Positions 4,441 through 39,862 of a stretch of DNA of 64,000 bases are shown here, piece by piece; the first letter of the stretch is position 1; each line of letters begins with the position of its first letter. Location: the NCBI GenBank assembly GCA_964556545.1, contig CAZKWE010000009.1:17448-81447 (forward strand), read 5' to 3'. Origin of the DNA: an uncultured Campylobacteraceae bacterium. Its GTDB lineage: Bacteria > Campylobacterota > Campylobacteria > Campylobacterales > JALSKU01. The notes beneath the pieces were generated by a model. That model ran no database searches. It saw only the letters and a program-made list of their open reading frames with translations, and was not told the origin of the DNA. Made by a program: the position numbers and the translations under genes.

Positions 4441-4450
4441 TTGGTATAAT
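4441..4450 (+). promoter_or_regulatory. extended -10 promoter (TTGGTATAAT) driving the repeated leader, copy 1
   Basis: TGnTATAAT match lies 7-8 nt upstream of the first nucleotide conserved between the two leader copies. A similar box sits at the same position in copy 2. Confidence 0.5.
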
Positions 4451-4457
4451 CAAATGA

Positions 4458-4616
4458 AACAATCATGTTTCAAAAAACACAAACAAAAATAAAATCATGA
4501 TTGTTTCTCTCGCCGACAGGTGTAGCATAAGTTTTACCCCACAAAATTTTAAAATTTTGTTGGGACCCCAAAGTGATAGGAATTTTTGCTGGAATCCATT
4601 TCCGGCAAAAAGGAGA
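4458..4616 (+). promoter_or_regulatory. structured leader / candidate cis-regulatory RNA, copy 1
   Basis: About 95% identical to 22867..23026. It has four predicted hairpins, stem substitutions are mostly wobble-compatible, and it ends in AAAGGAGA. No ORF is conserved between the copies. Confidence 0.5.
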
Positions 4617-4670
4617 ATTTAAGGTGAAAAACCGATATAATGAGGTCTCATAATATTTAGGCAGAAAAAA

Positions 4671-5555
4671 ATGATTAATAAATTAAAAGAGTTTGGTGCG
4701 GATATAGTTCTTTTTAGTGTTGCACTCTCATGGGGTGCAACCTTTGTTATCGTACAAGATGCCATAAAAGATATTCCTGTTTTTGCATTTTTATTTTTAA
4801 GATTTTTTCTTAGTTTTTTGCTTATGTTTTTCTTCTGTTTTAAATACTTTAAACAGCTTGACAAACAACTTTTACAGGCGGGAATCTTTCTCGGGAGCCT
4901 CTTTTTTTTAGGATATGCGACACAAACATACGGACTTGTTTATACCAAATCTTCCATAGTGGCTTTCATAACAGGCTTAAATGTTATTATAGTTCCTATC
5001 GTAGTTTATATATTTTTTAGAGAAAAAGTATATATATTTTCTATTGTAGGGGCTGTTATAGCGGCTTTTGGGCTTTGGCTGCTAACTGGCGGGGGAAGTG
5101 TAGACAGTTTGGGCAAAGGGGAATTTTATTCTTTTTTGTGTGCTGTGTTTTTTGCCGTACATATTGTATTTACGGCAAAACTTTCAAAAAAATACAATAC
5201 TTTTTTACTTGTTAGCATACAACTCTTGAGTGTTGCCTTGCTTTCACTTTTAACATCTTTGGCAATTGATCCTTTTACTTTTCCAAAAGTTTATACATTT
5301 CCTGTGATATTGGCTCTTGTAACGACAGTTTTGTTTGCTACGGTTTATGCACTTTTTATGCAAACTTATATGCAACAGTTCACGACTCCCGCCAAAACTG
5401 CTATCATTTTTACAATGGAGCCGGCAAGTGCGGCTGTATTTAGCTATTTTTATGCACATGAAATTTTAAATTATACTCAAATTGCAGGAGGAATTATCAT
5501 GATGGCAGCTATGCTTATAGCCGAGATAGGTGCTTATTATAGAAATAAAATCTAA
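4671..5555 (+). CDS. EamA/DMT-family transporter
   Basis: 294 aa with about 10 hydrophobic helices and two-fold internal EamA-like organisation (SWGATFV..., TPAKTAIIFTMEPASAAVF). Confidence 0.75.
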   Translation: MINKLKEFGADIVLFSVALSWGATFVIVQDAIKDIPVFAFLFLRFFLSFLLMFFFCFKYFKQLDKQLLQAGIFLGSLFFLGYATQTYGLVYTKSSIVAFITGLNVIIVPIVVYIFFREKVYIFSIVGAVIAAFGLWLLTGGGSVDSLGKGEFYSFLCAVFFAVHIVFTAKLSKKYNTFLLVSIQLLSVALLSLLTSLAIDPFTFPKVYTFPVILALVTTVLFATVYALFMQTYMQQFTTPAKTAIIFTMEPASAAVFSYFYAHEILNYTQIAGGIIMMAAMLIAEIGAYYRNKI

Positions 5556-21535: not shown

Positions 21536-22866
21536 ATATAGCAATCATAGGTGGCGGTATAAGCGGACTTACCACTGCATTTTACATAAAATACTTCAGT
21601 CCGCAAACGAAGATAACACTTTTTGAAAAAGAAGCTTATCTTGGCGGAAAAATGCATACGGTTCAAAAAGACGGTTTTTTTATAGAAGAGGGTAGCAATG
21701 GATTTTTATCCAATAAACCTGACACTTTGGAGCTTGTAAAACTTAGCGGATGCAAAGATATACTTTTAAAAAGCAGTGATAATGCGAGAAAAAGATTTAT
21801 TTATGATAAAAAGCTTGAAGTTTTACCCGAATCTCCAAAAGCATTTTTAACAACTTCTCTTCTTAGCCTAAAAGGAAAACTTAGAGTTTTATGGGAACCA
21901 TTTGCATTTGCTAAAAAAGATGACGGTGATGAAAGTCTGCAATCATTTGGTTACAGAAGAGTAGGAAAAGAGATGACTGATGTTTTTTTGGATGCTATGG
22001 TTGCAGGAGTTTATGCTTCAACTCCATCAAAAATATCAGCCCCGGCAGCATTTCCGCTTGTAGTCAATCTGGAAAAAAAGTATGGTTCTCTTTTTAAGGG
22101 TATGCTTGCAAAAAAGAAAAAAGAAGCAGGGCCGGGCGGAGTTTTAATGAGCTTTAGAGGCGGAGTCAGCTCTTTTATAGAAAAACTCTCATTATGTATT
22201 GATATGAATATCATAAAAGATACACAAATTACAAGCTTGCAAAAAGATAAAAATGAGTTTGTTATAACTTCGGACAATATAAAAATGCACTTTGACAAAG
22301 TTGTACTTGCCACTCCGGCTTACAGTACGGCGAATATTTTAAAAGAGTTGGCTCCGGATTTATCAAAAGAGTTAGAAGAGATAGAGTATTCGCCGATATC
22401 TATAGTGGCAACAGGTTATGAAAAACTATCAAATGATTTAAACGGTTTTGGTCTTTTAACAACCACAAGAGCTAAAAAAAGTATTCTTGGTATTCTTTGG
22501 GACAGTTCCATATTTGACGACAGAGCCCAATCAAACAAAAAGCTTCTTAGGGTCATGATAGGCGGACAAAGAGATAAAAAATTAGCTTTAAAAGATGAAA
22601 ATGAACTTTTGACAATAGCATTAAATGGTATAAAAGAGACTATGGCAATAGATAAAAAACCTGATTTTTACTATATAAAAAGATGGGAAAAGGGGATACC
22701 GAACTATGCTGTAGGCCATATAAAAAAAGTGGATAAAATTTTTAATATGGCTAAAAATATAGATGGTTTATATCTTAATTCAAATGCATACAAGGGTATA
22801 GGTTTAAATGATTGTGTTAGCAATTCAAAAAAGTGTGCTTTGGAAATAGTTGGTAAAAATTCTTAA
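21532..22866 (+). CDS. hemY: FAD-dependent protoporphyrinogen oxidase-like protein (HemY/PPOX family)
   Basis: 444 aa with the N-terminal dinucleotide fold IAIIGGGISGLT, E...LGG motifs and PPOX-like length. TTG start. Confidence 0.65.
   Translation: MNIAIIGGGISGLTTAFYIKYFSPQTKITLFEKEAYLGGKMHTVQKDGFFIEEGSNGFLSNKPDTLELVKLSGCKDILLKSSDNARKRFIYDKKLEVLPESPKAFLTTSLLSLKGKLRVLWEPFAFAKKDDGDESLQSFGYRRVGKEMTDVFLDAMVAGVYASTPSKISAPAAFPLVVNLEKKYGSLFKGMLAKKKKEAGPGGVLMSFRGGVSSFIEKLSLCIDMNIIKDTQITSLQKDKNEFVITSDNIKMHFDKVVLATPAYSTANILKELAPDLSKELEEIEYSPISIVATGYEKLSNDLNGFGLLTTTRAKKSILGILWDSSIFDDRAQSNKKLLRVMIGGQRDKKLALKDENELLTIALNGIKETMAIDKKPDFYYIKRWEKGIPNYAVGHIKKVDKIFNMAKNIDGLYLNSNAYKGIGLNDCVSNSKKCALEIVGKNS
22851..22860 (+). 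promoter_or_regulatory. extended -10-like box (TGGTAAAAAT) driving the repeated leader, copy 2
   Basis: It occupies the same position relative to the conserved block as TTGGTATAAT in copy 1, and lies inside the last codons of the hemY-like gene. Confidence 0.4.
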
Positions 22867-23026
22867 AACAATCATGCTTCAAAAAACACAAATAAAAATA
22901 AAAATCATGATTGTTTCTCTCGCCGACAGGCGTAGCATAAGTTTTACCCCACAAAATTTTAAAATTTTGTGGGGACCCCAAAGTGATAGGAATTTTTGCT
23001 GGAATTCATTTTCAGCAAAAAGGAGA
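22867..23026 (+). promoter_or_regulatory. structured leader / candidate cis-regulatory RNA, copy 2
   Basis: About 95% identical to 4458..4616. Its 3' AAAGGAGA is the SD for the ATG at 23035. Confidence 0.5.
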
Positions 23027-23034
23027 TTTTAAAA

Positions 23035-24245
23035 TGAAATATATCTTTTTTATTTTTTTGCCGGTTTTTGTATTTGCAAATGTACTTCAAGATGTCATAG
23101 ACAAAGCAAAACCATACTCCGTAATAGAACTCAAAGACGGAATTTACAAAGGAAATATAGTTATAAACAAACCTTTAAAAATCTTGGCAAAACAAGGGGC
23201 AAAGGCTATTATCGATGCAGACAAAAAGGGCAGTGTCATACTTTTGAAAAGTTCGAATATAACTTTACAAAATCTCATCATAAAAGGAACAGGTCACAGA
23301 AAAGAGATATTTGATAGTGCGATTATAGGCGAAAAGATAAATAACATAACTATAAAAAATTGCAAAATTACCGACTCTCTTTACGGTATAAATATCTCTA
23401 TGGCAAATAATATAAAAATTATCTCAAATACAATCTCTTCAAAAGATGAAAAAAAGCCTTTAAGAGGAGACGGTATAAAGTTTTGGTATGTAAACAATTC
23501 AAAGATTATAGGAAATACTTTTTTAAAAGTAAGAGATATACATTTTGAGAGATCCGATAATAATATCATAAAAAATAACCGTTTCTTATACAATAGATTT
23601 GCAACCCATATAGAGTTTGGTAAAAATAACCTTATTGAAAATAACTTTTACAGATACAATTCGGTCGGTATTTTACTTGAGGGTACGACAAAAATAAAAA
23701 TTATAAAAAATAAAATTCTAAATTCAAACGGCATGGCAGCCATAGGAGCACTTTTCAGAGGCGGAAATCATATAATTTTTCAAAATAATATACTCAAATA
23801 CAACAGAGAAGGATTATATATTGATGCAAAACCTTCCAAGCTTGAAAAATTTAAAAGAAAAATAATCAATAATGAGATAAGTTTTAACTTGCAAGCCATA
23901 CACTTTCATGCAATCATTGCCAACAATATTATAACATTCAATAAAATTCATGACAACCTTTATGATATAGTAAAAGATATAACAGGATATAAAAATTTAA
24001 ACAATAAGGTAGAATACAATTATTGGGGTCAATACAAAGGATTTGATACAAATTATGACAATATAGGAGATACCCCTTATATTATAAAAAGATATTTTGA
24101 CAAACTTTACAGTTATAACAATAAAATAAAATTCTTTTACGGCAGTACTGTTATGGCAGTAGTGGATTTTTTATGTGAAATAGCTCCATTTACCAAACCG
24201 GAAATACTCCTTGTGGATAAAAAACCTGTATTTAAGGATAAATGA
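23035..24245 (+). CDS. NosD-family periplasmic right-handed beta-helix protein
   Basis: Start moved to ATG 23035 (MKYIFFIFLPVFVFA signal peptide, SD AGGAGA 8 nt upstream). Has a NosD-like N-terminus (LQDVIDKAKP..VIELKDGIYKGNIVINKPL), repeated N..I.NN beta-helix units and a C-terminal GDTPY motif. Confidence 0.7.
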
Positions 24246-25393: not shown

Positions 25394-25501
25394 TAATTTT
25401 TAGGCTTAAATAGTCATTTTTTAGCCTTGATGATAGTCATTTCTAATTATAAATTTTTAAGATATAATTCGCTTAAATTTTACTCTCCCAAAAGGTATCA
25501 A

Positions 25502-27604
25502 ATGCTTGCAGAAGTTTTAAAAAGAGACGGTACTACACAAGAATTTCAGTCATATAAAATAGAAGATGCAATTAAAAAAGCTTTCAAAAGTGAAAATACC
25601 ACATATGACAGGCAAGTATTTTTAAATGTTTTAGATAAGATAAAGCACAAAAGAGTAGCTGCAGTCGAAGATATACAAGATTTAATCGAGCATGAACTAT
25701 ACAAAGCAAGATACTTTGAAGTAATGAAATCCTTTATGCAGTACAGACTTATCCATAAGATGCAAAGAGAACATGTATTGGGTTTAAATGAAGATACCAC
25801 TTATATAAACTGTACCCAAACTATTGAAGAGTATATAGATAAACTTGACTGGAGAATCAATGCAAACTCCAACACAGGATACTCAAATGCCGGCTTGGTA
25901 AATAATTCAGCAGGCAAAATTATAGCAAATTACTGGCTTGATAAGATTTATTCAAGAGAAGAGGGATATGCTCACAGAAATGGAGATTATCACATACATG
26001 ATCTTGACTGCCTTACCGGATATTGTGCCGGATGGAGTTTAAGGGTACTTTTAGATGAAGGCTTTAACGGAGTCAGAGGCAGAGTTGAAAGTAAAGCTCC
26101 AAGCCATTTTAGAGAAGCTTTGGGACAAATGGCAAACTTTTTAGGAATTTTACAGAGCGAGTGGGCCGGAGCACAGGCATTTAGTAGTTTTGATACATAT
26201 CTTGCACCATATGTTTTTAAAGACAAACTCTCTTTTAAAGAGGTAAAAAAAGCTGTAAGAAGTTTTATATACAATTTAAATGTTCCTGCCCGATGGGGAC
26301 AGAGTCCATTTACGAACATTACCATTGATTGGACAGTTCCGAATGATTTAAAAGATCAAATACCTACCAAAAACCAATATCATCTTTTAAAAAATATAAA
26401 TGACAGGGAACTTTTAAATGAAGCAAAAAAAAGAGGCGTTAAAAATTTAACCGATTTGACATATAAATATTTTCAAAAAGAGATGAATCTTATAAACAGA
26501 GCCTACTATGAAGTAATGACTGAGGGAGATAAAACAGGTCAACCTTTTACTTTTCCCATTCCTACTGTAAATATCACGGAAGATTTTGACTGGTATGGAG
26601 AAAATACGGATCTTCTTTTTGAAAATACTGCAAAAATCGGCTCAAGCTACTTTCAAAATTTTATAGGAAGCCAGTATATAAGAGATGAAAATGGCAATTT
26701 GATTGAAAATCCTGAAGCTTACAAACCGGGTGCTGTTAGAAGTATGTGTTGTAGGCTTCAGTTGGATTTAAGAGAACTTTTAAAAAGAGGCGGCGGGCTT
26801 TTTGGCAGTGCGGAAATGACAGGAAGCATAGGGGTTGTTACCATAAATGCCACAAGACTTGGATATCTTTATAAAAATAACAAAGAAGCATTATATAAAG
26901 AACTTGAAAGATTGATGGATTTGGCAAAATCAACTCTTGAAAAAAAAAGAGTCTTTATACAGGAAATGTATGACAGGGGCTTATACCCTTATACGAAAAG
27001 ATATCTTCCCGGATTCAACAATCACTTTTCAACCATAGGGATTAACGGTATCAATGAAATGATACGAAATTTTAGTGAAGATAAAGATGATATTACAACA
27101 GAATTTGGAATGAAATTTGCTATTGAATTGTTAGAATATATGAGAGAAAAATTAAAATCATATCAAGAGGAAACAGGCAATTTGTATAATTTGGAAGCTA
27201 CTCCGGCAGAAGGAACTACTTATAGATTTGCAAAAGAGGATAAAAAAAGATATCCTGATATACTGCAAGCAGGTTTCGGTAAAAATATATACTATACAAA
27301 TTCTTCTCAGCTTCCGGTAAATTATACTGATGATCCTTTTGAAGCACTTGATATGCAAGATGAACTTCAGTGTAAATATACGGGAGGAACGGTTTTACAC
27401 CTGTATATGAGTGAAAAGATAAGTTCGCCCGAGGCTTGCAGAAAGCTTGTAAAAAATGTTATTGGCAATTACAGACTTCCATATATCACTATAACACCTG
27501 TTTTTTCCGTATGTGAAAAACACGGATACATAAACGGAGAACATGAATACTGTCCGTATTGTGATGAAGAGTTGATAAATGAATATGAAAAGGAGATATT
27601 ATGA
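25502..27604 (+). CDS. nrdD: anaerobic ribonucleoside-triphosphate reductase large chain, lacking the glycyl-radical motif
   Basis: Start at ATG 25502 (MLAEVLKRDGTTQEF, ATP-cone); a TATAAT lies upstream within the track extension. Class III RNR body ending in the Zn-site CEKHGYINGEHEYCPYC, with no RVxGY motif before the stop. Confidence 0.85.
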   Translation: MLAEVLKRDGTTQEFQSYKIEDAIKKAFKSENTTYDRQVFLNVLDKIKHKRVAAVEDIQDLIEHELYKARYFEVMKSFMQYRLIHKMQREHVLGLNEDTTYINCTQTIEEYIDKLDWRINANSNTGYSNAGLVNNSAGKIIANYWLDKIYSREEGYAHRNGDYHIHDLDCLTGYCAGWSLRVLLDEGFNGVRGRVESKAPSHFREALGQMANFLGILQSEWAGAQAFSSFDTYLAPYVFKDKLSFKEVKKAVRSFIYNLNVPARWGQSPFTNITIDWTVPNDLKDQIPTKNQYHLLKNINDRELLNEAKKRGVKNLTDLTYKYFQKEMNLINRAYYEVMTEGDKTGQPFTFPIPTVNITEDFDWYGENTDLLFENTAKIGSSYFQNFIGSQYIRDENGNLIENPEAYKPGAVRSMCCRLQLDLRELLKRGGGLFGSAEMTGSIGVVTINATRLGYLYKNNKEALYKELERLMDLAKSTLEKKRVFIQEMYDRGLYPYTKRYLPGFNNHFSTIGINGINEMIRNFSEDKDDITTEFGMKFAIELLEYMREKLKSYQEETGNLYNLEATPAEGTTYRFAKEDKKRYPDILQAGFGKNIYYTNSSQLPVNYTDDPFEALDMQDELQCKYTGGTVLHLYMSEKISSPEACRKLVKNVIGNYRLPYITITPVFSVCEKHGYINGEHEYCPYCDEELINEYEKEIL

Positions 27605-27780
27605 CAAAAGAGGAAATTTTAAAAAAATTAGAAAGTAAAAGAACAAAGTGTACTGTCTATACAAGAGTAATGGGATATCACAGACCCGTTGAAAGCTTTA
27701 ATATAGGAAAAAAAGGAGAACACAAGCAAAGAAAACATTTTAAGGAAAATCCCTCTGTAAAACTTCAAAACTGTGCATAA
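27601..27780 (+). CDS. 59-aa ORF carrying the class III RNR glycyl-radical motif
   Basis: Not in the ORF track (59 codons). Its ATG overlaps the nrdD stop (ATGA). Translation: [65 protein letters not shown]...FN.GK..E...R matches the NrdD C-terminal RVxGY glycyl-radical segment. Confidence 0.65.
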   Translation: MTKEEILKKLESKRTKCTVYTRVMGYHRPVESFNIGKKGEHKQRKHFKENPSVKLQNCA

Positions 27781-28453
27781 AATACTCTATGATATAACAA
27801 AATTTACTGCACTTGATTATGAAGATCATTTAAGTGCCGTATTGTGGTTTGGGGGATGCAATATGAGATGTCCCTACTGCCATAACTCCGATATTGTATT
27901 TGGCAAAAACAATATAACAAAAGATGAACTTTTTACTTTTTTAAAAAGCAGAATCGGAAGACTTGAAGCCGTAGTTTTAAGTGGTGGAGAGTGTACTTTG
28001 TATAAAGATTTACCAAATTTGGCAAAAGAGATAAAAAAACTTGGTTTTAAAATAAAAATAGATACCAACGGAACTAAACCTGATATTATAAAGGAGATGA
28101 TAGAAAAAAAGTTTATTGATTTTATTTCGCTTGATTATAAAGCACCAAAAAAACATTATCACAAAGTTACACAAAACAGTGACTTTGACAAATTTTATGA
28201 AACTCTGACTTACCTTATAAAAAAAGATCAGAATTTTGAAGTAAGAACAACTGTTCATACTGATTTATTGGGGGTTTATGACATAAATCTTATCATAAAA
28301 GAATTGCATTTACTCGGATATAAAGGTAATTATTACATACAAAACTATATGCATCAAGATAAAATCTTAGGTGATTTAAAAGAACAGAAAAAAATAATTG
28401 ACAAAGATAAAATTATAAAAGATTTAATATCTGTTAAATTTAGAAATTTTTAA
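27773..28453 (+). CDS. nrdG: anaerobic ribonucleotide reductase activating protein (radical SAM)
   Basis: 226 aa with the [12 protein letters not shown] radical-SAM cluster motif and GGECTL. The GTG start overlaps the small ORF by 8 nt. Confidence 0.85.
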
Positions 28454-28920
28454 ACCTTTACTCTTTGAGCATGAGTTAGAGCTATAGCTATAGCATCAGT
28501 TATATCAAGAGGTTTTATCTCTTTTCTTATTCCAAGAATTCTTTTTACCATAAATGCCACTTGTTCTTTTGTTGCTTTTGCTTTTGAGGTTACTGCTTTT
28601 TTTACCTGAAGCGGAGTATATTCGTAAAAATTACCAAGTTCCAAAAGAATTTTAAGAGAAAGAGCTCCTCTAAATTGTGCCAGTTTTAAAACTGTTTTTG
28701 GATTGTGTGCATAAAATATATCTTCAATTGCAACTTCATCTATAATATGATTTTTTATAATCATATCTAAACCCTCGACAAGTTCTACAATTTGATTTTG
28801 GAGTTGTGTTTCTTTAATTTTTATAAGTCCGGCTTCTATAAGCGAAACTTTATTTTTTTCTTTTTTGATGATGGCATAACCACAATTTCTACTGCCCGGG
28901 TCTATTCCTAAAATATTCAT
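28450..28920 (-). CDS. ruvC: crossover junction endodeoxyribonuclease RuvC
   Basis: 156 aa with [18 protein letters not shown] and the C-terminal [13 protein letters not shown] motif. Confidence 0.9.
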
Positions 28921-29086
28921 TAATTTTACCTTATTAATTACTTATTCACACTATTTTCACTATGTGAATATATGTTAATCATATATCAAAAACTATTTTA
29001 ACTAATTATTTAAGGTATTTTAGCTAAAATAATATATATTTTCACATATTTTTCAATATGTGAAAAGTTTCAATCAAGGGAAAATT
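28921..29086. other. oriC part 1: DnaA-box cluster upstream of dnaA
   Basis: TTCAC-core 9-mers: TTATTCACA 28942-28950 (+), ATTTTCACT 28953-28961 (+), TGTGAATAT 28963-28971 (-), ATTTTCACA 29038-29046 (+), TGTGAAAAG 29059-29067 (-). The spacer is very AT-rich. Confidence 0.7.
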
Positions 29087-30403
29087 TTGCTGATAGATGA
29101 TATTTTGGAACTTTTAAAAAAAGAGATAACACTTCAAGAATACAACAGATATATAAAACAACTCTCTTTTAATGAAAAAGAGTCAAAATCAAACCTTTTG
29201 GTTTTTGAAGTACCGAATATTTTGGTAGCCAACTGGATAAAAACGAAATACAGCAGTAAAATTTCTCATCTATATGAAGTAAAAACCGGTAAAAAATCTC
29301 AAATAATTATAAGAGTAAAAAACGGTAAAACCGGTAAAAACAGTATAAAAAAAGAGGTCTCAAAAGAGATTCAAAATTCTAAAAAAATAACTATACTAAA
29401 TCCATCTTTTACATTTGGCAGTTTTGTTGTAGGAAGTTCAAACCAATTTGCTTTTACTGTTGCGAAATCAGTTGCCGAAAAACCTGGAATTGTTTATAAT
29501 CCTGTTTTTATATACGGTCCGACAGGTCTTGGAAAAACTCATTTGATTCATGCCATAGGAAATTATGCATCTCAAAAAGGCAAAATTATAATTTATGCCA
29601 CTATAGAACAATTTATGAATGATTTTACCTACAATCTAAGACAGCAAACAATGGATAGATTTAGAGAAAAATATAGAAATTGTGATATTCTTCTTATAGA
29701 TGATATTCAGTTTTTAAGCAATAAAATTCAAACGCAAGAAGAATTTTTTCATACTTTTAACGAACTTCACAATAATGGAAAACAGATAGTTTTAACTTCG
29801 GATAAACCTCCAAAGATGATTGCAGGTCTTGAAGAGAGACTAAAAAGCAGATTTGAATGGGGTATTAAAGCTGATATAACTTTACCTGAATTAGAAACTA
29901 AAATTGCCATAATAAAAAAGAAGTGTGAAATTGACGGAATTAAACTAAATGATGAAATTATAAATTATATAGCAACAAATATGGGCGATAATATAAGAGA
30001 AATAGAAAGTGCAATAATAAATCTAAATGCCTATGCATCTTTAATGGGACAAAAAATAACTTTTGAATTTGCAAAAAATGTTATGAAAGAACAGATAAAA
30101 GAAAGAAATAACAGTATATCATTGGAAGACATCATAAATGTAATTTCAAAAGAATTAAATATAAAACCAAGTGAAATAAAATCTAAAAGAAGAAATAAAA
30201 ATATAGTTGAAGCCAGACGAATCGGTATCTATCTGGCTAGAACTCTAACACCAAATTCTATGCCTTCTTTGGCAAATTTTTTTGGCATGAAAGATCATAC
30301 TGCAGTATCACATAATATGAAAAAAATAAATGAAATTATTCAAAATGATGAAAACTTTAAAGTTAGAGTTGATGAACTGAAAAATATGATCTTAACGAAA
30401 TAA
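29087..30403 (+). CDS. dnaA: chromosomal replication initiator protein DnaA
   Basis: Has GPTGLGKTHL, LLIDDIQFL and the C-terminal DNA-binding domain (R.IA.YL.R.LT..S...FG.KDHT.V.H). I prefer TTG 29087 (AAGGGA 5 nt upstream, N-terminus MLIDDILELLKKE). Track start GTG 29060 lies inside a DnaA box and lacks an SD. Confidence 0.9.
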   Translation: MLIDDILELLKKEITLQEYNRYIKQLSFNEKESKSNLLVFEVPNILVANWIKTKYSSKISHLYEVKTGKKSQIIIRVKNGKTGKNSIKKEVSKEIQNSKKITILNPSFTFGSFVVGSSNQFAFTVAKSVAEKPGIVYNPVFIYGPTGLGKTHLIHAIGNYASQKGKIIIYATIEQFMNDFTYNLRQQTMDRFREKYRNCDILLIDDIQFLSNKIQTQEEFFHTFNELHNNGKQIVLTSDKPPKMIAGLEERLKSRFEWGIKADITLPELETKIAIIKKKCEIDGIKLNDEIINYIATNMGDNIREIESAIINLNAYASLMGQKITFEFAKNVMKEQIKERNNSISLEDIINVISKELNIKPSEIKSKRRNKNIVEARRIGIYLARTLTPNSMPSLANFFGMKDHTAVSHNMKKINEIIQNDENFKVRVDELKNMILTK

Positions 30404-30540
30404 ATGTGAACAAATGTGAAAATAAAGTCAAACATTTAAATCTTGCAAATATAAAAATTTAAGAGGTTTAAACTACTTTTTCACATTTTCAAGGTAATAT
30501 ACTACTATTACTATTTTATTTTATAATATAAAAGGAAACA
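30404..30540. other. oriC part 2: DnaA boxes plus AT-rich candidate unwinding region between dnaA and dnaN
   Basis: TGTGAACAA 30405-30413 (-), TGTGAAAAT 30415-30423 (-), TTTTTCACA 30477-30485 (+). These are followed by the nearly pure A/T run 30496-30535. Confidence 0.6.
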
Positions 30541-30551
30541 AAGGAGTAAAG

Positions 30552-31619
30552 ATGAAAATTTCTATCAACAAAAGTGTTTTAGAAAATATGCTTATAAATA
30601 CACTTCCGTATTTGGAAAAAAAAGATTTAAGCCAAATAACTTCACATATTCTTATAAATGCTTATGAAGATACTTTAGATATTAAAAGTACCGATTTTGA
30701 AATAGGTATAGAAATTTTTAGTAAAAATGTTCATATCAATGAACCGGGTACTGCAACAGCAAACGGTAAAAAACTGTTTGATATAATAAAAATACTAAAA
30801 GACAGTGATGTAACACTTGAAACAATAAATGATTATCTTTATATAAAACAGAAACACTCAAAATTCAAACTTCCTATGTTTAATCCTTCCGAATTTCCTG
30901 AGTTTCCAAAAATTGATAATAAACCAAAATTTGAAATTAATTCTTCAGCATTGGTAAGATCTATTAAAAAAATAGCACCGGCAATTGATACAAACAATCC
31001 GAAGTTTGAATTAAACGGGGCACTGATAGATATAAAAAAAGATCATATCAATATAGTGGCAACCGATACAAAAAGACTTGCTTTGGTTAAGATAGATAAT
31101 AGCAGTGAAAAAGATATATCTCTTATCATTCCGAAAAAAGCCATAAGTGAAATTCAAAAGATATTTTTTGATGAAATTGAAATTTACTATGATGAAAACA
31201 GTTTCATAGCAATTTCACCGAATTTTAAATTTTTTACAAAACTTATAAATGGAAAATATCCTGATTATGAAAGAATAATACCAAAAGAGATGGATAAAAG
31301 ACTTCTTTTAAACAGAGATAAAATTATTGATGCTATCAAACAAATATGGGTAGTATCTCAAGAGATAAAAGTAACATTTAAACCTGATTTGATAGTTTTT
31401 GAAAGTTTAAATGATACCAATATAGAAGCTAAAACAGAGATAGAGTTCGATACAGGATTGAATGAAGAAATATTTCTTGCAATCAATTCAAAACATGTAA
31501 TAGATTTTTTAACAAATATTGAAAAAAACAGCTTTACTCTTGGATATAATGATTCAAGTATGCCTTTTACCTTGGAAAGTGATAACTTTTTAACTATAAT
31601 TATGCCTATAATGATATAA
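30552..31619 (+). CDS. dnaN: DNA polymerase III subunit beta
   Basis: 355 aa. Position after dnaA, three-domain clamp length, and ATDTKRLA and INGKYPDYERIIP motifs. Confidence 0.9.
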   Translation: MKISINKSVLENMLINTLPYLEKKDLSQITSHILINAYEDTLDIKSTDFEIGIEIFSKNVHINEPGTATANGKKLFDIIKILKDSDVTLETINDYLYIKQKHSKFKLPMFNPSEFPEFPKIDNKPKFEINSSALVRSIKKIAPAIDTNNPKFELNGALIDIKKDHINIVATDTKRLALVKIDNSSEKDISLIIPKKAISEIQKIFFDEIEIYYDENSFIAISPNFKFFTKLINGKYPDYERIIPKEMDKRLLLNRDKIIDAIKQIWVVSQEIKVTFKPDLIVFESLNDTNIEAKTEIEFDTGLNEEIFLAINSKHVIDFLTNIEKNSFTLGYNDSSMPFTLESDNFLTIIMPIMI

Positions 31620-31637
31620 AAAAATGAGGAACAGTAA

Positions 31638-33955
<2,318 letters not shown>

Positions 33956-33956
<1 letters not shown>

Positions 33957-36951: not shown

Positions 36952-37058
36952 GCACTTCTCTTCAGATGGCTGCGGCACATAAACTCACAGGGTGCTCTGC
37001 TGCGTTCCCGCCCTGAAGCATTGTCCTGTAAGTCTATTGCACAGGTCTGAAGAGAAGC
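36952..37058 (-). ncRNA. ffs: signal recognition particle 4.5S RNA
   Basis: GC-rich island in AT-rich DNA. The minus-strand RNA folds into one long hairpin closed by GCUUCUCUUCAGA/UCUGAAGAGAAG(U)GC. Its apex, CAGG-GCG-GGAA-CGC-AGCA, matches the domain IV pattern of E. coli 4.5S RNA (CAGG-UCC-GGAA-GGA-AGCA). A TGGTACAAT -10 box lies on the minus strand at 37093-37101. Ends are approximate. Confidence 0.75.
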
Positions 37059-37574: not shown

Positions 37575-39765
37575 AATAGTAATTGTTTTATTTATTATAT
37601 CTACTTTACTATTTTCATATGATAGATATAATATATTGGTTTTACACTCTTATCATAAAGGTTATAAATGGAGTGATGATATATCAAAAGCAATAGAAGA
37701 TAATTTTCAAAATAATCCGAATATCGATATAACTACACTTTATATGGATGCACAAAGAATTGAAAATGATTCATACTACAGTAAACTTTTTGAGCTTTAT
37801 AAAGAGGAATTTAAACATACTGCTTTTGATGTTGTTGTCGCAGTTGACAACAATGCCTTGGAATTTTTAACCAGGTTTAGAGATAAGATTTTTCAAAATA
37901 GTCCGATTGTTTTTTGCGGTATCAATAATTTCAGCGAAAAAATGATAGATTTTCCAAACTTTAGATATAAAGTTACCGGAATTGTAGAAAATGTTGATGT
38001 TAAAAAAAATATAGAGCTAATAATAAATATGGTTCCGTATCTTAACAAAATACTTATCATTAGTGATGAATCAAAAAGCGGATTGGATATAAAAAAAGAT
38101 ATTTTTAAAATTATGAAAAACTATTTTTATCTAAATTACGAATATCTTGATATGTTTGATTTAAAAGGTATAAAAAAGATAGTAAAAACTTTAAAAAAAC
38201 ATGATGCTATATTATATGTTTTTCATCAAAGAGATAAATCCGGAAAATATTTTACATATAAAGATTCTCTAAAAGAGGTAGCTTCTGTCAGTAAAGTTCC
38301 TATATTTGGTTTATGGGATTTTGATATGGGATACGGAGTAGTCGGAGGAGCTTTGCTAAATGGATACTCTCAAGGAAATGAAGCGGCAAAAATGGTATCT
38401 TTGATACTAAACGGAGTTGAACCGAAAGATATACCAATTTTAAAAAAAAGTACTTCAAGATATATATTTGATTATAATCTCTTAAAAAAATATAATTTAA
38501 AAATTCCAAAAAATATAAGAAAGGAAGCTTTGATTTTAAATAAACCAAAATCCATATATGAACAACATAAAAAAATTATTTGGATATTTGGTTCAATATT
38601 ACTGTTTTTGCTGATAGTCAGTATAATTTTACTTATTAATATAACCAAAAAAAACAGGGCTGAGAAAAAGCTTCAAGAACAGTTGAAATTTTTAGAAGTT
38701 TTGATTGAAACTATACCGAACCCTATTTTTTACAAAGACAAATCCGGAAAATATTTAGGATGCAATAAAGCTTATGCCGATTTTATAGGTGCTACAAAAA
38801 AAGATATCTTGGGTAAAACAAGTTATGCATTTTTTAAAAATTTTGTAGCAAGTCAAAATACAAAAAGAGATCAAGAACTTTTAAATTCATTGAAAAATGA
38901 TATATATGAGACAACTTTATATTCAAAAGACGGGAAATTTGCCAAACAGGTAATTATCAGCAAGGCCCCTTTTTATTTAAGTGACAATAGTGTTGGCGGA
39001 ATTGTATGTGTTATAGATGATATAACGGAAGTAACACAGCAAAAGGAACTTTTAAACCAACAGTCAAAATTGGCTGAGATGGGAGATATGATTGCGGCAA
39101 TTGCACATCAATGGAACGAACCTTTAGTAGAATTATCCGCGATAGTGCAAGATTTGCAAATGAATTTTTTGGAAGGAAGTATTGAAAAAAAAGATATTGA
39201 AGAATTTGTAAAAGATTCTATGATTCAAATACAATATATGTCAAATACTATAAAAGATTTTAGAAATTTTTTAAAGCCGTCTGTAAAAAAAGGAAAATTT
39301 TCTTTAAAAAAAGCATTTAGTGAAATTTATGAAATTATAGGAAAACAGATATTTTATGCAAATATAAATCTTATCTTTGCTGTTGATACCAAAAAAGAAG
39401 ATATTGAAATATACGGATATGAAAATGAATTTAAACAGGTACTTTTAAATCTTATCAATAATTCAAAATCAAAAATTATAGAGTTGCAAGAAAAAAATAA
39501 AAAGTTTATAATAGAAATAGAAGCTTTTATAAAAGAGAATAAAATTTTTATAAATATAAGAGATAATGGAGGCCATATAAAAGATAGTATTATAGAATTT
39601 ATATTTAATCCTTATTTTACAACTAAAAAGAATGGTACAGGACTTGGTCTGTATGTGGCAAAAATAATTATAGAAGATAAAATGAATGGGCATATCAAGG
39701 TACAAAATATTGAAAAAGATATAGTAGAATTTACAATTATTGTTCCAAAAGCAAAGGAGATATAA
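37558..39765 (+). CDS. sensor histidine kinase with periplasmic ABC-type substrate-binding-like domain and PAS domain
   Basis: 735 aa: signal anchor, ~300-aa periplasmic domain (VLHSYHKGYKWSDD pattern), TM helix, PAS (NPIFYKDK.GKYLGCNKAY), H-box IAHQWNEPL, and an ATPase domain (GTGLGLY). Confidence 0.8.
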   Translation: MQIINKIVIVLFIISTLLFSYDRYNILVLHSYHKGYKWSDDISKAIEDNFQNNPNIDITTLYMDAQRIENDSYYSKLFELYKEEFKHTAFDVVVAVDNNALEFLTRFRDKIFQNSPIVFCGINNFSEKMIDFPNFRYKVTGIVENVDVKKNIELIINMVPYLNKILIISDESKSGLDIKKDIFKIMKNYFYLNYEYLDMFDLKGIKKIVKTLKKHDAILYVFHQRDKSGKYFTYKDSLKEVASVSKVPIFGLWDFDMGYGVVGGALLNGYSQGNEAAKMVSLILNGVEPKDIPILKKSTSRYIFDYNLLKKYNLKIPKNIRKEALILNKPKSIYEQHKKIIWIFGSILLFLLIVSIILLINITKKNRAEKKLQEQLKFLEVLIETIPNPIFYKDKSGKYLGCNKAYADFIGATKKDILGKTSYAFFKNFVASQNTKRDQELLNSLKNDIYETTLYSKDGKFAKQVIISKAPFYLSDNSVGGIVCVIDDITEVTQQKELLNQQSKLAEMGDMIAAIAHQWNEPLVELSAIVQDLQMNFLEGSIEKKDIEEFVKDSMIQIQYMSNTIKDFRNFLKPSVKKGKFSLKKAFSEIYEIIGKQIFYANINLIFAVDTKKEDIEIYGYENEFKQVLLNLINNSKSKIIELQEKNKKFIIEIEAFIKENKIFINIRDNGGHIKDSIIEFIFNPYFTTKKNGTGLGLYVAKIIIEDKMNGHIKVQNIEKDIVEFTIIVPKAKEI

Positions 39766-39862
39766 ATATGAAACGAAGTTTCATTCTTGCCAAAGGCAAA
39801 GCTTTAGTGATAGGAATTTGCTTGGCGACTTGTTGCAAAGCAAAGGAGATATAAATATGAAA
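39748..39862 (+). repeat. perfect 26-bp direct repeats flanking a 63-bp insert at the kinase/regulator junction
   Basis: AAAGCAAAGGAGATATAAATATGAAA occurs at 39748-39773 and again at 39837-39862. The insert contains AGTGATAGGAATTT, which is shared with the two leader copies. Confidence 0.85.

Follow-up and report, generated by a model that had tools for sequence, protein, structure and literature searches.

Dispersed intergenic repeats have been described in several bacterial groups, and some of them are located directly at the start codons of genes. The MIRU (mycobacterial interspersed repetitive units; Supply et al. 1997) are units of 40-100 bp that are dispersed over the intergenic regions of operons and run in the same direction as the flanking genes. 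As summarized in two papers (PMC12548453, PMC3184786), they often occur in tandem, are absent at the homologous site in relatives, and were first seen between sensor-kinase and response-regulator genes. The same papers describe MIRU at start codons as carrying ORFs that span the unit and share 4 nt with the downstream start. The Neisseria REP2 and CREN repeats and the Borrelia IR are located directly upstream of start codons, contain a ribosome-binding site as well as a promoter inside the unit, and serve a small co-regulated gene set (PMC3184786). REP/BIME, ERIC, BOX, and Correia are abundant, lineage-specific, transcribed intergenic repeats with predicted RNA hairpins, which are found in either orientation, for the most part 3' of genes or at any place between them. 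REP and ERIC affect mRNA stability; Correia and ERIC have terminal inverted repeats and TA duplications, and REP has the RAYT as a partner (PMC3184786).

Judged from sequence comparison, the element upstream of an EamA-family transporter gene described here (copy 1, Table 1) belongs, as a long form, to a large family of dispersed structured RNA elements that is so far undescribed and is carried by Sulfurimonas-like Campylobacterota. The window, that is, the whole stretch of 64,000 nucleotides that was analyzed, contains three copies. The near-identity of two intergenic blocks, noticed in an initial annotation of this DNA, was confirmed: positions 4457-4629 and 22866-23039 share 93.7% identity over 174 nt (BLASTN), differ by 7 substitutions and 1 indel up to AAAGGAGA (MAFFT), and represent the sole long direct repeat of the window. 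Both long copies fold far better than shuffled sequences (z = -4.2 and -5.3). The suspected third instance proved to be real as well, as copy 3 scored 76 bits (E = 9e-14) against a covariance model from which the two long copies had been left out. A 14-mer of the core is exact in all three. Copy 1 is atypical in that the Shine-Dalgarno sequence (SD) of the family normally serves the main gene, whereas here it serves a 9-codon ORF; its setting is a divergent promoter region.

Table 1. Features of the element and its surroundings in the 64-kb window
Feature	Position	Strand	Remarks
Extended -10-like box TTGGTATAAT	4441..4450	+	Upstream of copy 1; outside the repeat family
H1 of copy 1, GAAACAAUCAUG / CAUGAUUGUUUC	4456..4507	+	12 bp, A-rich 28-nt loop; optional 5' module of the long form
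Pyrimidine tract UCUCUC (YUCU)	4506..4511	+	Predicted to pair with SD GGAGA
H2, CGCC GACA GGUG	4511..4522	+	Pairs compensated across the family
H3	4537..4564	+	Near-perfect 28-nt palindromic hairpin; optional insertion at the H2/core junction
Core ACCCCAA-AGUGAUAGGAAUUU	4565..4585	+	Single-stranded; short-form counterpart AGCUUY-AGUGAGAGGAAUUU
H4, UUUUUGCUGGAA UCCAU UUCCGGCAAAAA	4583..4611	+	12-bp hairpin abutting the SD
Shine-Dalgarno sequence AAAGGAGA	4609..4616	+	3' end of the element
9-codon GTG ORF	4624..4653	+	Only ORF served by the copy 1 SD; ahead of the EamA gene
TATAAT	4636-4641		Between copy 1 and the EamA gene
EamA-family transporter gene	4671..5555	+	Pfam PF00892, E = 7e-31; downstream of copy 1
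Copy 2, long form	22866..23033	+	Fills the spacer from an amine-oxidase/PPO-like gene (stop 22864-22866) to a NosD-like gene (ATG 23034)
Copy 3, canonical short form	39769..39856	+	Between a histidine-kinase gene and its response-regulator gene

The element had not been assigned to any RNA class, and this assessment stands: Rfam 15 gave no match on the elements, neither at the gathering threshold over the whole window nor in permissive scans of both long copies and five canonical short-form loci. Membership in a known RNA family was rejected, as the permissive scans returned noise only, off the elements. The sole match in the window at the gathering threshold is the SRP RNA at 36956-37053.

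A protein search with the ORF spanning the element led to three more copies, and a pattern scan of metagenomic DNA matched at least 120 stretches, whose lengths cluster at 41-45 nt among the matches listed (38-58 nt were permitted). Together with model searches, these approaches brought the number of additional copies in metagenome contigs of the Sulfurimonas-like type to at least 130, with several of them per 100 kb. Element lengths span 80-190 nt, the minimal unit being ~80 nt, and the parts follow a common order: the pyrimidine tract, H2, an optional H3, the core GCUUY-AGUGAGAGGAAUUU, H4, AAAGGAGA, ~7 nt, and the start codon. H1 is located 5' of this unit and is missing from most short forms; forms with both H1 and H3 are referred to as long. 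At the H3 site, other family members carry unrelated hairpins or none. The purine-rich, single-stranded core has the consensus GCUUYAGUGAGAGGAAUUU, whose invariance is partly due to ascertainment because the scan pattern fixed AGTGAKRGGAATTT and AAAGGAGA. For that reason, only two conserved parts are unforced, namely GCUUY, which is 95-99% conserved 5' of the searched pattern without having been demanded by it, and YUCU before H2, which is found in ~70% of the family members and absent in ~30%.

Widespread conservation of the long-form core was rejected, since among 185,579 species genomes its 18-mer CCCCAAAGTGATAGGAAT gave only 4 unrelated chance matches. The 21-kb loci of Sulfurimonas gotlandica GD1 and S. 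hongkongensis contained no copy, nor, apart from one marginal match, did the loci examined of the relatives L001-L005, a sample too small to establish absence. Furthermore, no paper was found that contains the core sequence or reports such a repeat in Sulfurimonas or Campylobacterota.

The helices of the element are selected for pairing on the sense strand. In the family alignment of 106 sequences, 90.5% of the cells are paired, compared with 63.8% in shuffles, and the covariation score is 0.695 vs 0.21 in shuffled and at most 0.15 in slid alignments. Double changes were observed at 15 of the 16 modeled pairs, including all five pairs of H2; in H4, 96.5% of the cells are paired and 10 of 11 pairs show compensatory changes. 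G-U and U-G together (102) far exceed A-C and C-A (22), and the folding is therefore specific to the sense strand. All four hairpins that had been drawn by eye were recovered by RNAalifold from seven long-form copies originating from different loci and samples, with compensatory pairs in each hairpin (three such pairs in H1, and three in H3 at L013/L042). Of the four substitutions between the two long copies that had been placed in stems, the three described as keeping pairing were confirmed: G-U is exchanged for G-C in H2, and U-G for U-A as well as G-C for G-U in H4. One H4 pair occurs as U-G, U-A, and C-G in three near-identical copies, the C-G, from another assembly of the same organism, being a full compensation. 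The conserved, structured, sense-strand RNA element ending in an SD that was initially proposed is thus supported.

Relative to start codons, the element keeps a fixed position and orientation. In 107 of 138 copies, GGAGA is followed after 2-11 nt (mode 7) by the start codon of a real ORF, and the remaining copies are mostly located inside arrays or at contig ends. Upstream, 75 of 95 copies (~79%) have a co-oriented gene that ends a median of 44 nt before the core, and typically the element fills the gap from the stop codon of one gene to the start codon of the next. The covariance model, run over ~820 kb, detected neither antisense nor orphan copies, and no copy was found to be antisense to its adjacent gene. 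The initial annotation had named a REP- or MITE-like repeat, with many genomic copies in random orientation and no covariation, as the finding that would speak against a structured leader; the copies are many, but their orientation is uniform and the covariation is strong. The neighboring genes, on the other hand, are unrelated. One hundred downstream proteins include 122 Pfam families with at most four occurrences per family; the GlmM-type mutase is the commonest (four times), and other downstream genes encode RbfA, IspH, PdxJ, HslV, TrxB, RpoC, and L36. A riboswitch controlling transporters, as suggested at first, does not agree with a family that precedes ~100 unrelated housekeeping genes.

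Our best reading, to which we give an even chance, is that of a dispersed, structured intercistronic RNA cassette that carries an SD and is MIRU-like in its behavior. Its role would probably lie in the translation or processing of operon mRNAs. We suggest that the element acts within the mRNA as a portable cassette for translation initiation between cistrons, in which H2 and H4 may hold the core next to the SD and within reach of a hypothetical common trans-acting factor. Candidates for this factor are the 30S subunit, for which AGAGGA, with its resemblance to an SD, could be a standby or decoy site, a CsrA-type protein that binds GGA, or an endoribonuclease acting to separate the cistrons. 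If the core were cleaved, the upstream fragment would be capped at its 3' end by H2 and the downstream fragment at its 5' end by H4. The pyrimidine tract might alternatively mask the SD. The cassette would spread by duplication and by recombination between copies, and would be tolerated because it supplies its own SD. Several observations count against this reading: the tract is missing from the ~30% of copies noted above, neither of the tract pairings covaries, and the SD of copy 1 does not serve the main gene. Moreover, a single-stranded DNA intermediate of transposition would tolerate G-T wobbles on one strand as well.

A rather unlikely alternative is that the element is selfish or neutral mobile DNA of the MIRU, MITE, or REP type without any regulatory role. 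The hairpins and the core would then be recognition features for a mobilizing enzyme, e.g., a single-strand HUH/Y1 transposase that acts on one strand, and the SD would make insertion next to start codons harmless. Signs of mobility are present. In the relatives L001 (80% amino acid identity) and L004, the junction of the PPO-like and NosD-like genes is only 2 nt long, and copy 2 at the filled site is therefore an insertion. Paralogous long copies within one genome are 94-98% identical, and assemblies break within the element. Tandem arrays or partial modules were observed at ~13% of the loci, among them arrays in which 2-3 units recur every 81-89 nt (seven loci) and (H2+core)n arrays (five loci). 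At some orthologous sites with 87-90% protein identity, the arms of H2 and H4 are wholly different, a pattern that resembles an exchange of arms by recombination more than gradual compensatory change and is in keeping with mobile DNA, as is the lack of relationship among the neighboring genes. The tract and the SD can be read as a short imperfect terminal inverted repeat, as the element ends show an imperfect complementarity of 5-6 nt (UUCUCU vs AGGAGA of the SD); no longer inverted repeat was seen. MIRU have likewise been described as mobile units that insert at start codons with a coupled ORF (PMC12548453).

Other observations do not agree with mobile DNA. A long target-site duplication was hinted at by the exact 26-nt direct repeat AAAGCAAAGGAGATATAAATATGAAA flanking copy 3 and by a further locus (L024). 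Flanking direct repeats of at least 12 nt occur at 16 of 127 loci, compared with 2.4% in the null, but every one of these cases is a tandem or partial tandem copy and the loci without tandem repeats match the null distribution, so that a target-site duplication was rejected. No associated transposase was seen. An origin from phages or plasmids was rejected too, as IMG/VR, PLSDB, and INPHARED contained no match to the element. Insertion bias alone would have to explain the sense orientation and the fixed distance to the start codon wherever a gene is callable. The excess of G-U over A-C likewise counts against mobile DNA. Copies are gained or lost between relatives, yet they can persist at orthologous sites: the element still precedes a given gene where protein identity between taxa has fallen to 46-58%, and there the hairpin arms differ but remain paired.

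The cassette reading can be extended to an RNA class for operon punctuation, which we consider unlikely in this full form. Here, the conserved 20-nt core, kept between the two hairpins in front of the SD, would be targeted by a dedicated trans-acting factor, such as a sequence-specific endoribonuclease or RNA-binding protein, or would cleave itself as a small ribozyme. The factor would determine how dozens of housekeeping cistrons are processed, stabilized, and translated, all at the same time, and the cassette itself would be mobile and spread over the genome, forming a self-propagating post-transcriptional regulon.

More doubtful still is a sensor RNA, i.e., a riboswitch or RNA thermometer that would switch many operons between an SD-masked (UCUC:GGAG) and an SD-free state in response to a global signal such as temperature, Mg2+, polyamines, or an alarmone. 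An unpaired conserved core between covarying helices would suit such a sensor. The SD-sequestering alternative from the initial annotation was reproduced for long forms: a UCUC:GGAG helix of 4-5 bp closing a multi-branch junction is predicted in six of seven long forms (P = 0.35-0.89). For many short forms, folding predicts pairing of the tract with either the core or the SD. Thermometers of the ROSE or fourU type hold the SD in a weak, meltable helix; the SD is, however, predicted to be mostly free across 114 short forms (mean unpaired probability 0.67), and the masking tract is the part that nearly a third of the copies lack. The closing helix cannot be tested by covariation because it is invariant in long forms. 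The same holds for the pairings of the tract with the core and with the SD and for the core mini-hairpin CUUY[AGUGA]GAGG, which show no covariation, a result that is uninformative because the columns are nearly invariant. Furthermore, the downstream genes form no coherent set, optional modules and (H2+core)n arrays are atypical of aptamers, and H4 is stable and excludes the SD, unlike known thermometers.

Contrary to the statement that no ORF is conserved between the copies, both long copies share a 41-codon ORF (4497-4622 and 22907-23032); all six substitutions in it are non-synonymous, and coding is thus not indicated. In 67 of 99 elements, an open frame runs across H2 and the core and has its stop beside the downstream start, and in 35 of the 75 open frames ending there the stop overlaps the start codon (AUGA/GUGA). 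Two stop-free frames are used about equally (43 vs 32), and there is therefore no conserved peptide. Upstream ATGs are not enriched (59% vs 60% in control windows), and element-spanning ORFs are no more frequent than composition predicts. A conserved micro-protein or an obligatory ORF coupling was rejected on these grounds. Gene callers have annotated the spanning ORF in three assemblies.

The promoter-plus-leader had been proposed as one repeated unit. TTGGTAWAA upstream of copies 1 and 2 lies outside the repeat, unrelated sequence is found at six other long-form copies, and the box of copy 2 falls within the last codons of the upstream gene. A promoter as part of the unit was discarded as the -10 box is not conserved in those six long forms, and most copies follow a co-oriented gene; TTGGTATAAT may be a local promoter of the divergent intergenic region. 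A sigma-70 scan, which demands a -35 hexamer, reported no promoter on the + strand; a -35 hexamer is not expected to be conserved in this phylum. An independent gene for a small RNA or for a small protein (an ORF of 41-60 codons spanning the long form, or short ORFs ending at AUGA overlaps) is a very improbable reading, since the shared and annotated ORF, the open frames with their stop/start overlaps, and the -10-like box of copy 1 are set against the non-synonymous substitutions, the use of two frames, the unenriched ATGs, the lack of a terminator after the element, and the intercistronic location of most copies.

If the element acts at the RNA level, many housekeeping operons of sulfur-oxidizing vent and sediment bacteria, an ecologically important group, would share a portable control or processing module at the ribosome-binding site, and nature would thus offer a parallel to the insulator and bicistronic-design parts of synthetic biology. 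It would possibly also be a compact example of a regulon that spreads through the copying of a cis element. If it is merely selfish DNA, it would be a clear example of a repeat that persists because it carries an SD with it. In practice, the element interrupts metagenome assemblies and draws spurious small-protein annotations. The alignment, with more than 100 sequences and strong covariation, is ready for an RNA family entry.

Compared with the known systems, the Neisseria REP2 and CREN repeats and the Borrelia IR are the closest precedent for the promoter-plus-leader of the initial annotation. The present element differs from them in that it has no promoter in the unit, is mostly intercistronic, and precedes unrelated genes. 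With BOX it shares a modular construction, A-Bn-C in BOX and (H2+core)n-H4 here. Unlike REP/BIME, ERIC, BOX, and Correia, it has no target-site duplication, a single orientation, a fixed distance to the start codon, and only short, imperfectly complementary ends. REP/BIME in particular are imperfect palindromes of 20-40 nt with a GTAG-type head that occur in both orientations, usually 3' of genes, whereas the element measures 80-190 nt, has one orientation, and lies 5' of genes, abutting the SD. It resembles MITEs in its multiple copies and presence/absence polymorphism but not in target-site duplication.

Like riboswitch leaders, the element has an unpaired core framed by covarying helices upstream of the SD, with a possible SD-masking helix; unlike the riboswitch leaders in Rfam, it serves no coherent gene set, its modules are optional and repeated, and several copies occur per 100 kb. 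With CsrA/RsmA leaders it shares two GGA motifs, one in the AGAGGAA of the core and one in the AAGGAGA of the SD, which lie 23 nt apart and are brought together by H4. These motifs are weak evidence for a CsrA leader, since every SD contains a GGA. The sites known for CsrA are short and degenerate GGA motifs that mostly lie in hairpin loops, and they do not need the conserved 80-nt architecture with a 20-nt conserved segment found here.

The element and MIRU are both located in operon spacers, co-oriented with the flanking genes, form tandem arrays, and have empty sites in relatives, and copy 3 sits between sensor-kinase and response-regulator genes. The element differs from MIRU in the strong covariation of its hairpins, in the conserved single-stranded core, and in having an SD of its own. 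Its spanning ORFs run in two frames at the frequency set by composition, so that ORF coupling does not appear to be a defining feature. MIRU belong to a different phylum with a different base composition, and homology is not expected; by description, the element behaves like a MIRU, which is no claim of membership.

Near-identity of the intergenic blocks that form copies 1 and 2 had been noticed by eye, and alignment gave the same count of seven substitutions and one 1-nt indel (as far as AAAGGAGA), corresponding to 93.7% identity over 174 nt; the pair is the sole long direct repeat of the 64-kb window. Shuffled sequence folds far worse (z = -4.2 for copy 1 and -5.3 for copy 2), and the predicted folds of both copies include all four hairpins proposed in the initial annotation (H1, H2, H3, and H4), which were also obtained with RNAalifold on seven long forms, i.e., elements carrying the optional H1 and H3. 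In the minimum-energy fold of copy 2, the junction is closed by UCUC:GGAG, a helix that would mask the Shine-Dalgarno (SD) sequence. One H4 position reads U-G in copy 1, U-A in copy 2, and C-G in L010, the copy 2 sequence from a second assembly of the same organism (NCBI metagenome-assembled genome (MAG) GCA_054029715.1). The window contains the 14-mer AGTGATAGGAATTT at exactly three places.

Elements and neighboring features in the window and in other loci
Feature	Locus	Position (strand)	Remarks
Copy 1, long form	window	4457-4629 (+)	EamA transporter gene downstream
Copy 2, long form	window	22866-23039 (+)	PPO-like amine oxidase gene upstream; NosD-like periplasmic protein, MFS transporter, NrdD, NrdG activase downstream
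Copy 3, short form	window	39769-39856 (+); 39741-39861 with flanks	between histidine-kinase gene and its response-regulator gene
Anaerobic ribonucleotide reductase region	window	25427-27780
Separate 59-aa ORF	window	27601-27780	after the reductase, before the activase
Radical-SAM activase	window	27773-28453
ruvC / dnaA / dnaN / gyrB cluster	window	28450-33956	between copies 2 and 3
Bacterial small SRP RNA	window	36956-37053 (-)	63 bits, E = 1.5e-11
Tandem long + short pair and third copy	L012		same MAG as L010
Contig end inside element	L012	9057-9133
Long form	L013		after atpB
Short form	L014		between two overlapping genes
Two or three (H2+core) modules, period ~45-52 nt	L049	485-673
Same	L121	(-)	contig end
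Same	L031, L018, L128
SECIS_3, sub-threshold (two)	L073	393-451 and 5568-5626 (-)	33-35 bits; gathering threshold 63
IS200/IS605-type Y1 transposase gene	L002	9111-10432	near NosD-like gene
Same	L135	12663-13196	near NosD-like gene

The copies are members of a new family of structured RNA elements with a dispersed distribution. An 18-mer of the long-form core, the conserved single strand before H4, had no related match among 185,579 species genomes, and the core sequence was not found in any paper. Because gene callers sometimes annotate an ORF spanning the element, a protein database was searched with an alignment of both ORF translations spanning copies 1 and 2, and three matches gave further copies (L012, L013, and L014). 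These indicate that H3 is optional and that the diverged third instance suspected earlier is built on the same plan. A scan pattern derived from the features common to all copies (AGTGAKRGGAATTT, 16-36 nt, AAAGGAGA) matched at least 120 stretches in JGI metagenomes and none in viral contigs. Among the matches listed, the length was 41-45 nt in all but about three, though 38-58 nt was permitted, which identifies them as homologues rather than chance matches. A covariance model built from 114 aligned short forms recovered exactly the three window copies (76, 52.8, and 47.2 bits) and 137 matches across the other loci, which named cluster mates assign to Sulfurimonas sp. or unclassified Campylobacterota. 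No copy is present in the 21-kb samples from S. gotlandica GD1 and from S. hongkongensis. The impression that it belongs to no known RNA class was borne out, as Rfam 15 at gathering threshold returned only the SRP RNA for the whole window and permissive scans of copies 1 and 2 and of five loci with canonical members gave only noise. Two sub-threshold SECIS_3 matches were seen in L073 (see table).

The consensus of the 114 short forms reads YUCUY - H2 - A - AGCUUY - AGUGAGAGGAAUUU - H4 - AAAGGAGA - N7 - AUG. H2 is exemplified by UGCC AAA GGCA, CGCC GAUA GGCG, and UUCGC AAG GCGAA, and H4 comprises 10-12 bp with an apical part that is often GGGGCUUUGCCCC, GGAAUUCACUUCC, or GGACUUGUUCC. The invariance of the 14-nt core and the SD is partly ascertainment, as both were fixed by the scan pattern; GCUUY (95-99% conserved) and YUCU (~70-75%) were not imposed by it. 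In a model-guided alignment of 106 sequences, standard pairs filled 90.5% of the cells, compared with 63.8% after shuffling and 56.7-63.4% with slid partners, and the covariation score was 0.695 versus 0.21 and at most 0.15, respectively. H4 was paired in 96.5%, with double changes in 10 of its 11 pairs, and H2 showed them in all five. Wobble cells (G-U plus U-G) numbered 102 against 22 for A-C plus C-A, an excess indicating that the helices form on the sense strand. For the seven long forms, taken from different loci, RNAalifold gave three compensated pairs in H1, none in H2, three in H3, and four in H4, and also recovered the invariant UCUC:GGAG closing helix; in other members, the H3 site holds different hairpins or none. 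Thermodynamic prediction leaves the SD mostly free in short forms (mean unpaired probability 0.67) and often masked by the pyrimidine tract in long forms. The SD-sequestering helix proposed initially is predicted in six of the seven long forms (P = 0.35-0.89), and hardly in copy 1 (P only 0.09). The core and its 5' flank (GCUUUAGU-GAGAGGAA, window 4572-4582) resemble what we take to be the sarcin-ricin loop of 23S rRNA (GCUCCUAGUACGAGAGGACC) minus AC, and the UCUC...GGAG flank recalls its presumed stem CUCC...GGAG; the likeness may be a coincidence.

In 107 of 138 copies, the start codon of a real ORF lies 2-11 nt (mode 7) past GGAGA, the remainder being mostly array-internal or at contig ends, and no antisense or orphan copy was found in the ~820 kb searched. 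Among the 95 non-array copies with enough flank, 75 follow a co-oriented gene whose end lies a median of 44 nt ahead of the core, the spacer thus being filled by the element; in another 15 the upstream gene is divergent, as it is for copy 1. Since it contains the ruvC / dnaA / dnaN / gyrB cluster, the window probably takes in the region of the replication origin, and the + strand location of all three copies on either side of that cluster argues against a replication-direction orientation rule. Tandem arrays consist either of whole units with a period of 81-89 nt or of (H2+core)n before a single H4-SD; two of the latter, in different taxa, precede what is presumably a ribosomal protein L36 gene (read from MKVRPSVKKMCDKCKV).

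The reading first envisaged, in which a riboswitch with a promoter of its own controls transporters, is not supported. The 100 downstream proteins examined fall into 122 Pfam families with at most four matches each and include GlmM, RbfA, IspH, PdxJ, HslV, and RpoC, with TrxB and ribosomal protein L36 recognised from sequence, and the upstream -10 similarity (TTGGTAWAA), initially regarded as part of the element, lies outside the family and in copy 2 falls within the terminal codons of the gene upstream. For copy 1 itself, the extended -10 (TGGTATAAT) is a good match at the right distance and sits in a divergent intergenic region, which makes a transcription start near 4457 plausible; the sigma-70 scan of this region depends on a -35 hexamer and is silent on a lone extended -10. 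The SD of copy 1 serves a 9-codon ORF, which is uncommon in the family, and EamA has its own TATAAT and a start 45 nt beyond.

Contrary to the initial annotation, copies 1 and 2 do share an ORF (41 codons), in which all six substitutions change the amino acid. In 67 of 99 elements, one reading frame runs uninterrupted across H2 and the core to a stop beside the downstream start, and 35 of the 75 open frames ending at the downstream start do so in an AUGA-type stop/start overlap. A conserved peptide was rejected: stops in the core (UAG UGA) close a single frame, and both of the others are used (43 versus 32). Obligatory ORF coupling is likewise without statistical support, as an upstream ATG is no commoner (59% of elements versus 60% of control windows) and the TGA of the overlap arises automatically from 'ATGAAA' gene starts. 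Spurious 43-59 aa 'proteins' (P0121-P0123) have been annotated across the element. Counterparts of the window's 59-aa ORF in L001 and L010 also match the NRDD family, so that a C-terminal reductase piece appears to be a separate small gene.

Judged from gene junctions, copy 2 is evidently an insertion. In L001, the closest relative found (same gene order, NosD-like protein 80% identical), and likewise in L004, 2 nt separate the stop of the amine-oxidase gene from the NosD start, so that the 167-nt element is present in one lineage and missing from its relatives. Y1 transposase genes near the NosD-like gene in two relatives, L002 and L135, the former with a ParE toxin pair and restriction-modification genes in the same region, showed no tie to the element. 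General target-site duplication was rejected, since the flanking direct repeats of at least 12 nt (16 of 127 loci versus 2.4% in the null) all stem from full or partial tandem copies. At copy 3, the flanking direct repeat is exact and 26 nt long (AAAGCAAAGGAGATATAAATATGAAA), being a duplication of the last kinase codons, the SD, and the regulator start, and a 28-codon ORF through the element ends, like the kinase, in KAKEI and a stop. Elsewhere, the same gene is preceded by the element in taxa with only 46-58% protein identity, and in two locus pairs (L023 and L062, L019 and L048) the downstream proteins are 87-90% identical and the H2 and H4 arms wholly different. Both persistence and turnover therefore happen, and the different arms at orthologous sites suggest that copies have replaced or converted one another, as opposed to a step-by-step gain of compensatory changes. 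Repeats are typical break points of assemblies, and the element breaks metagenome assemblies, as many public contigs start or stop inside one: the MAG contig with the copy 2 locus starts within it (L010), and further cases are the ends of L012, L013, and L067 as well as L109, L112, and L122.

The element is abundant, sense-oriented, structured, and SD-terminated; it is under selection for pairing, it is gained and lost, and it is independent of gene function. The main rival explanation treats it as no more than a mobile repeat that is tolerated. We infer that it acts in mRNA. Two stable hairpins frame a conserved single strand rich in purines immediately ahead of the SD, in most cases between cistrons, an architecture that would suit a site read by a common factor. 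Such a factor could be the 30S subunit, since AGAGGA is able to base-pair with the anti-SD at the 16S rRNA 3' end, a protein that binds GGA, such as CsrA, or an endonuclease, after whose cleavage H2 would remain as a 3' cap and H4 as a 5' cap.

By analogy, the closest counterpart in behavior is the mycobacterial interspersed repetitive unit (MIRU). MIRUs are intergenic in operons, co-oriented, tandem, and missing from relatives, and their insertion at start codons, together with a coupled ORF, has been described; the first to be found lay between the genes of a kinase and a regulator (PMC12548453; PMC3184786). Copy 3 likewise lies between kinase and regulator genes. Element-spanning open frames with AUGA-type overlap recall MIRUs, although obligatory coupling received no statistical support here. 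Neisseria REP2 and Borrelia IR repeats also place an RBS beside an ATG (PMC3184786). The present family differs from all three by its covarying hairpins and conserved core as well as by its strict orientation and fixed distance to the start codon.
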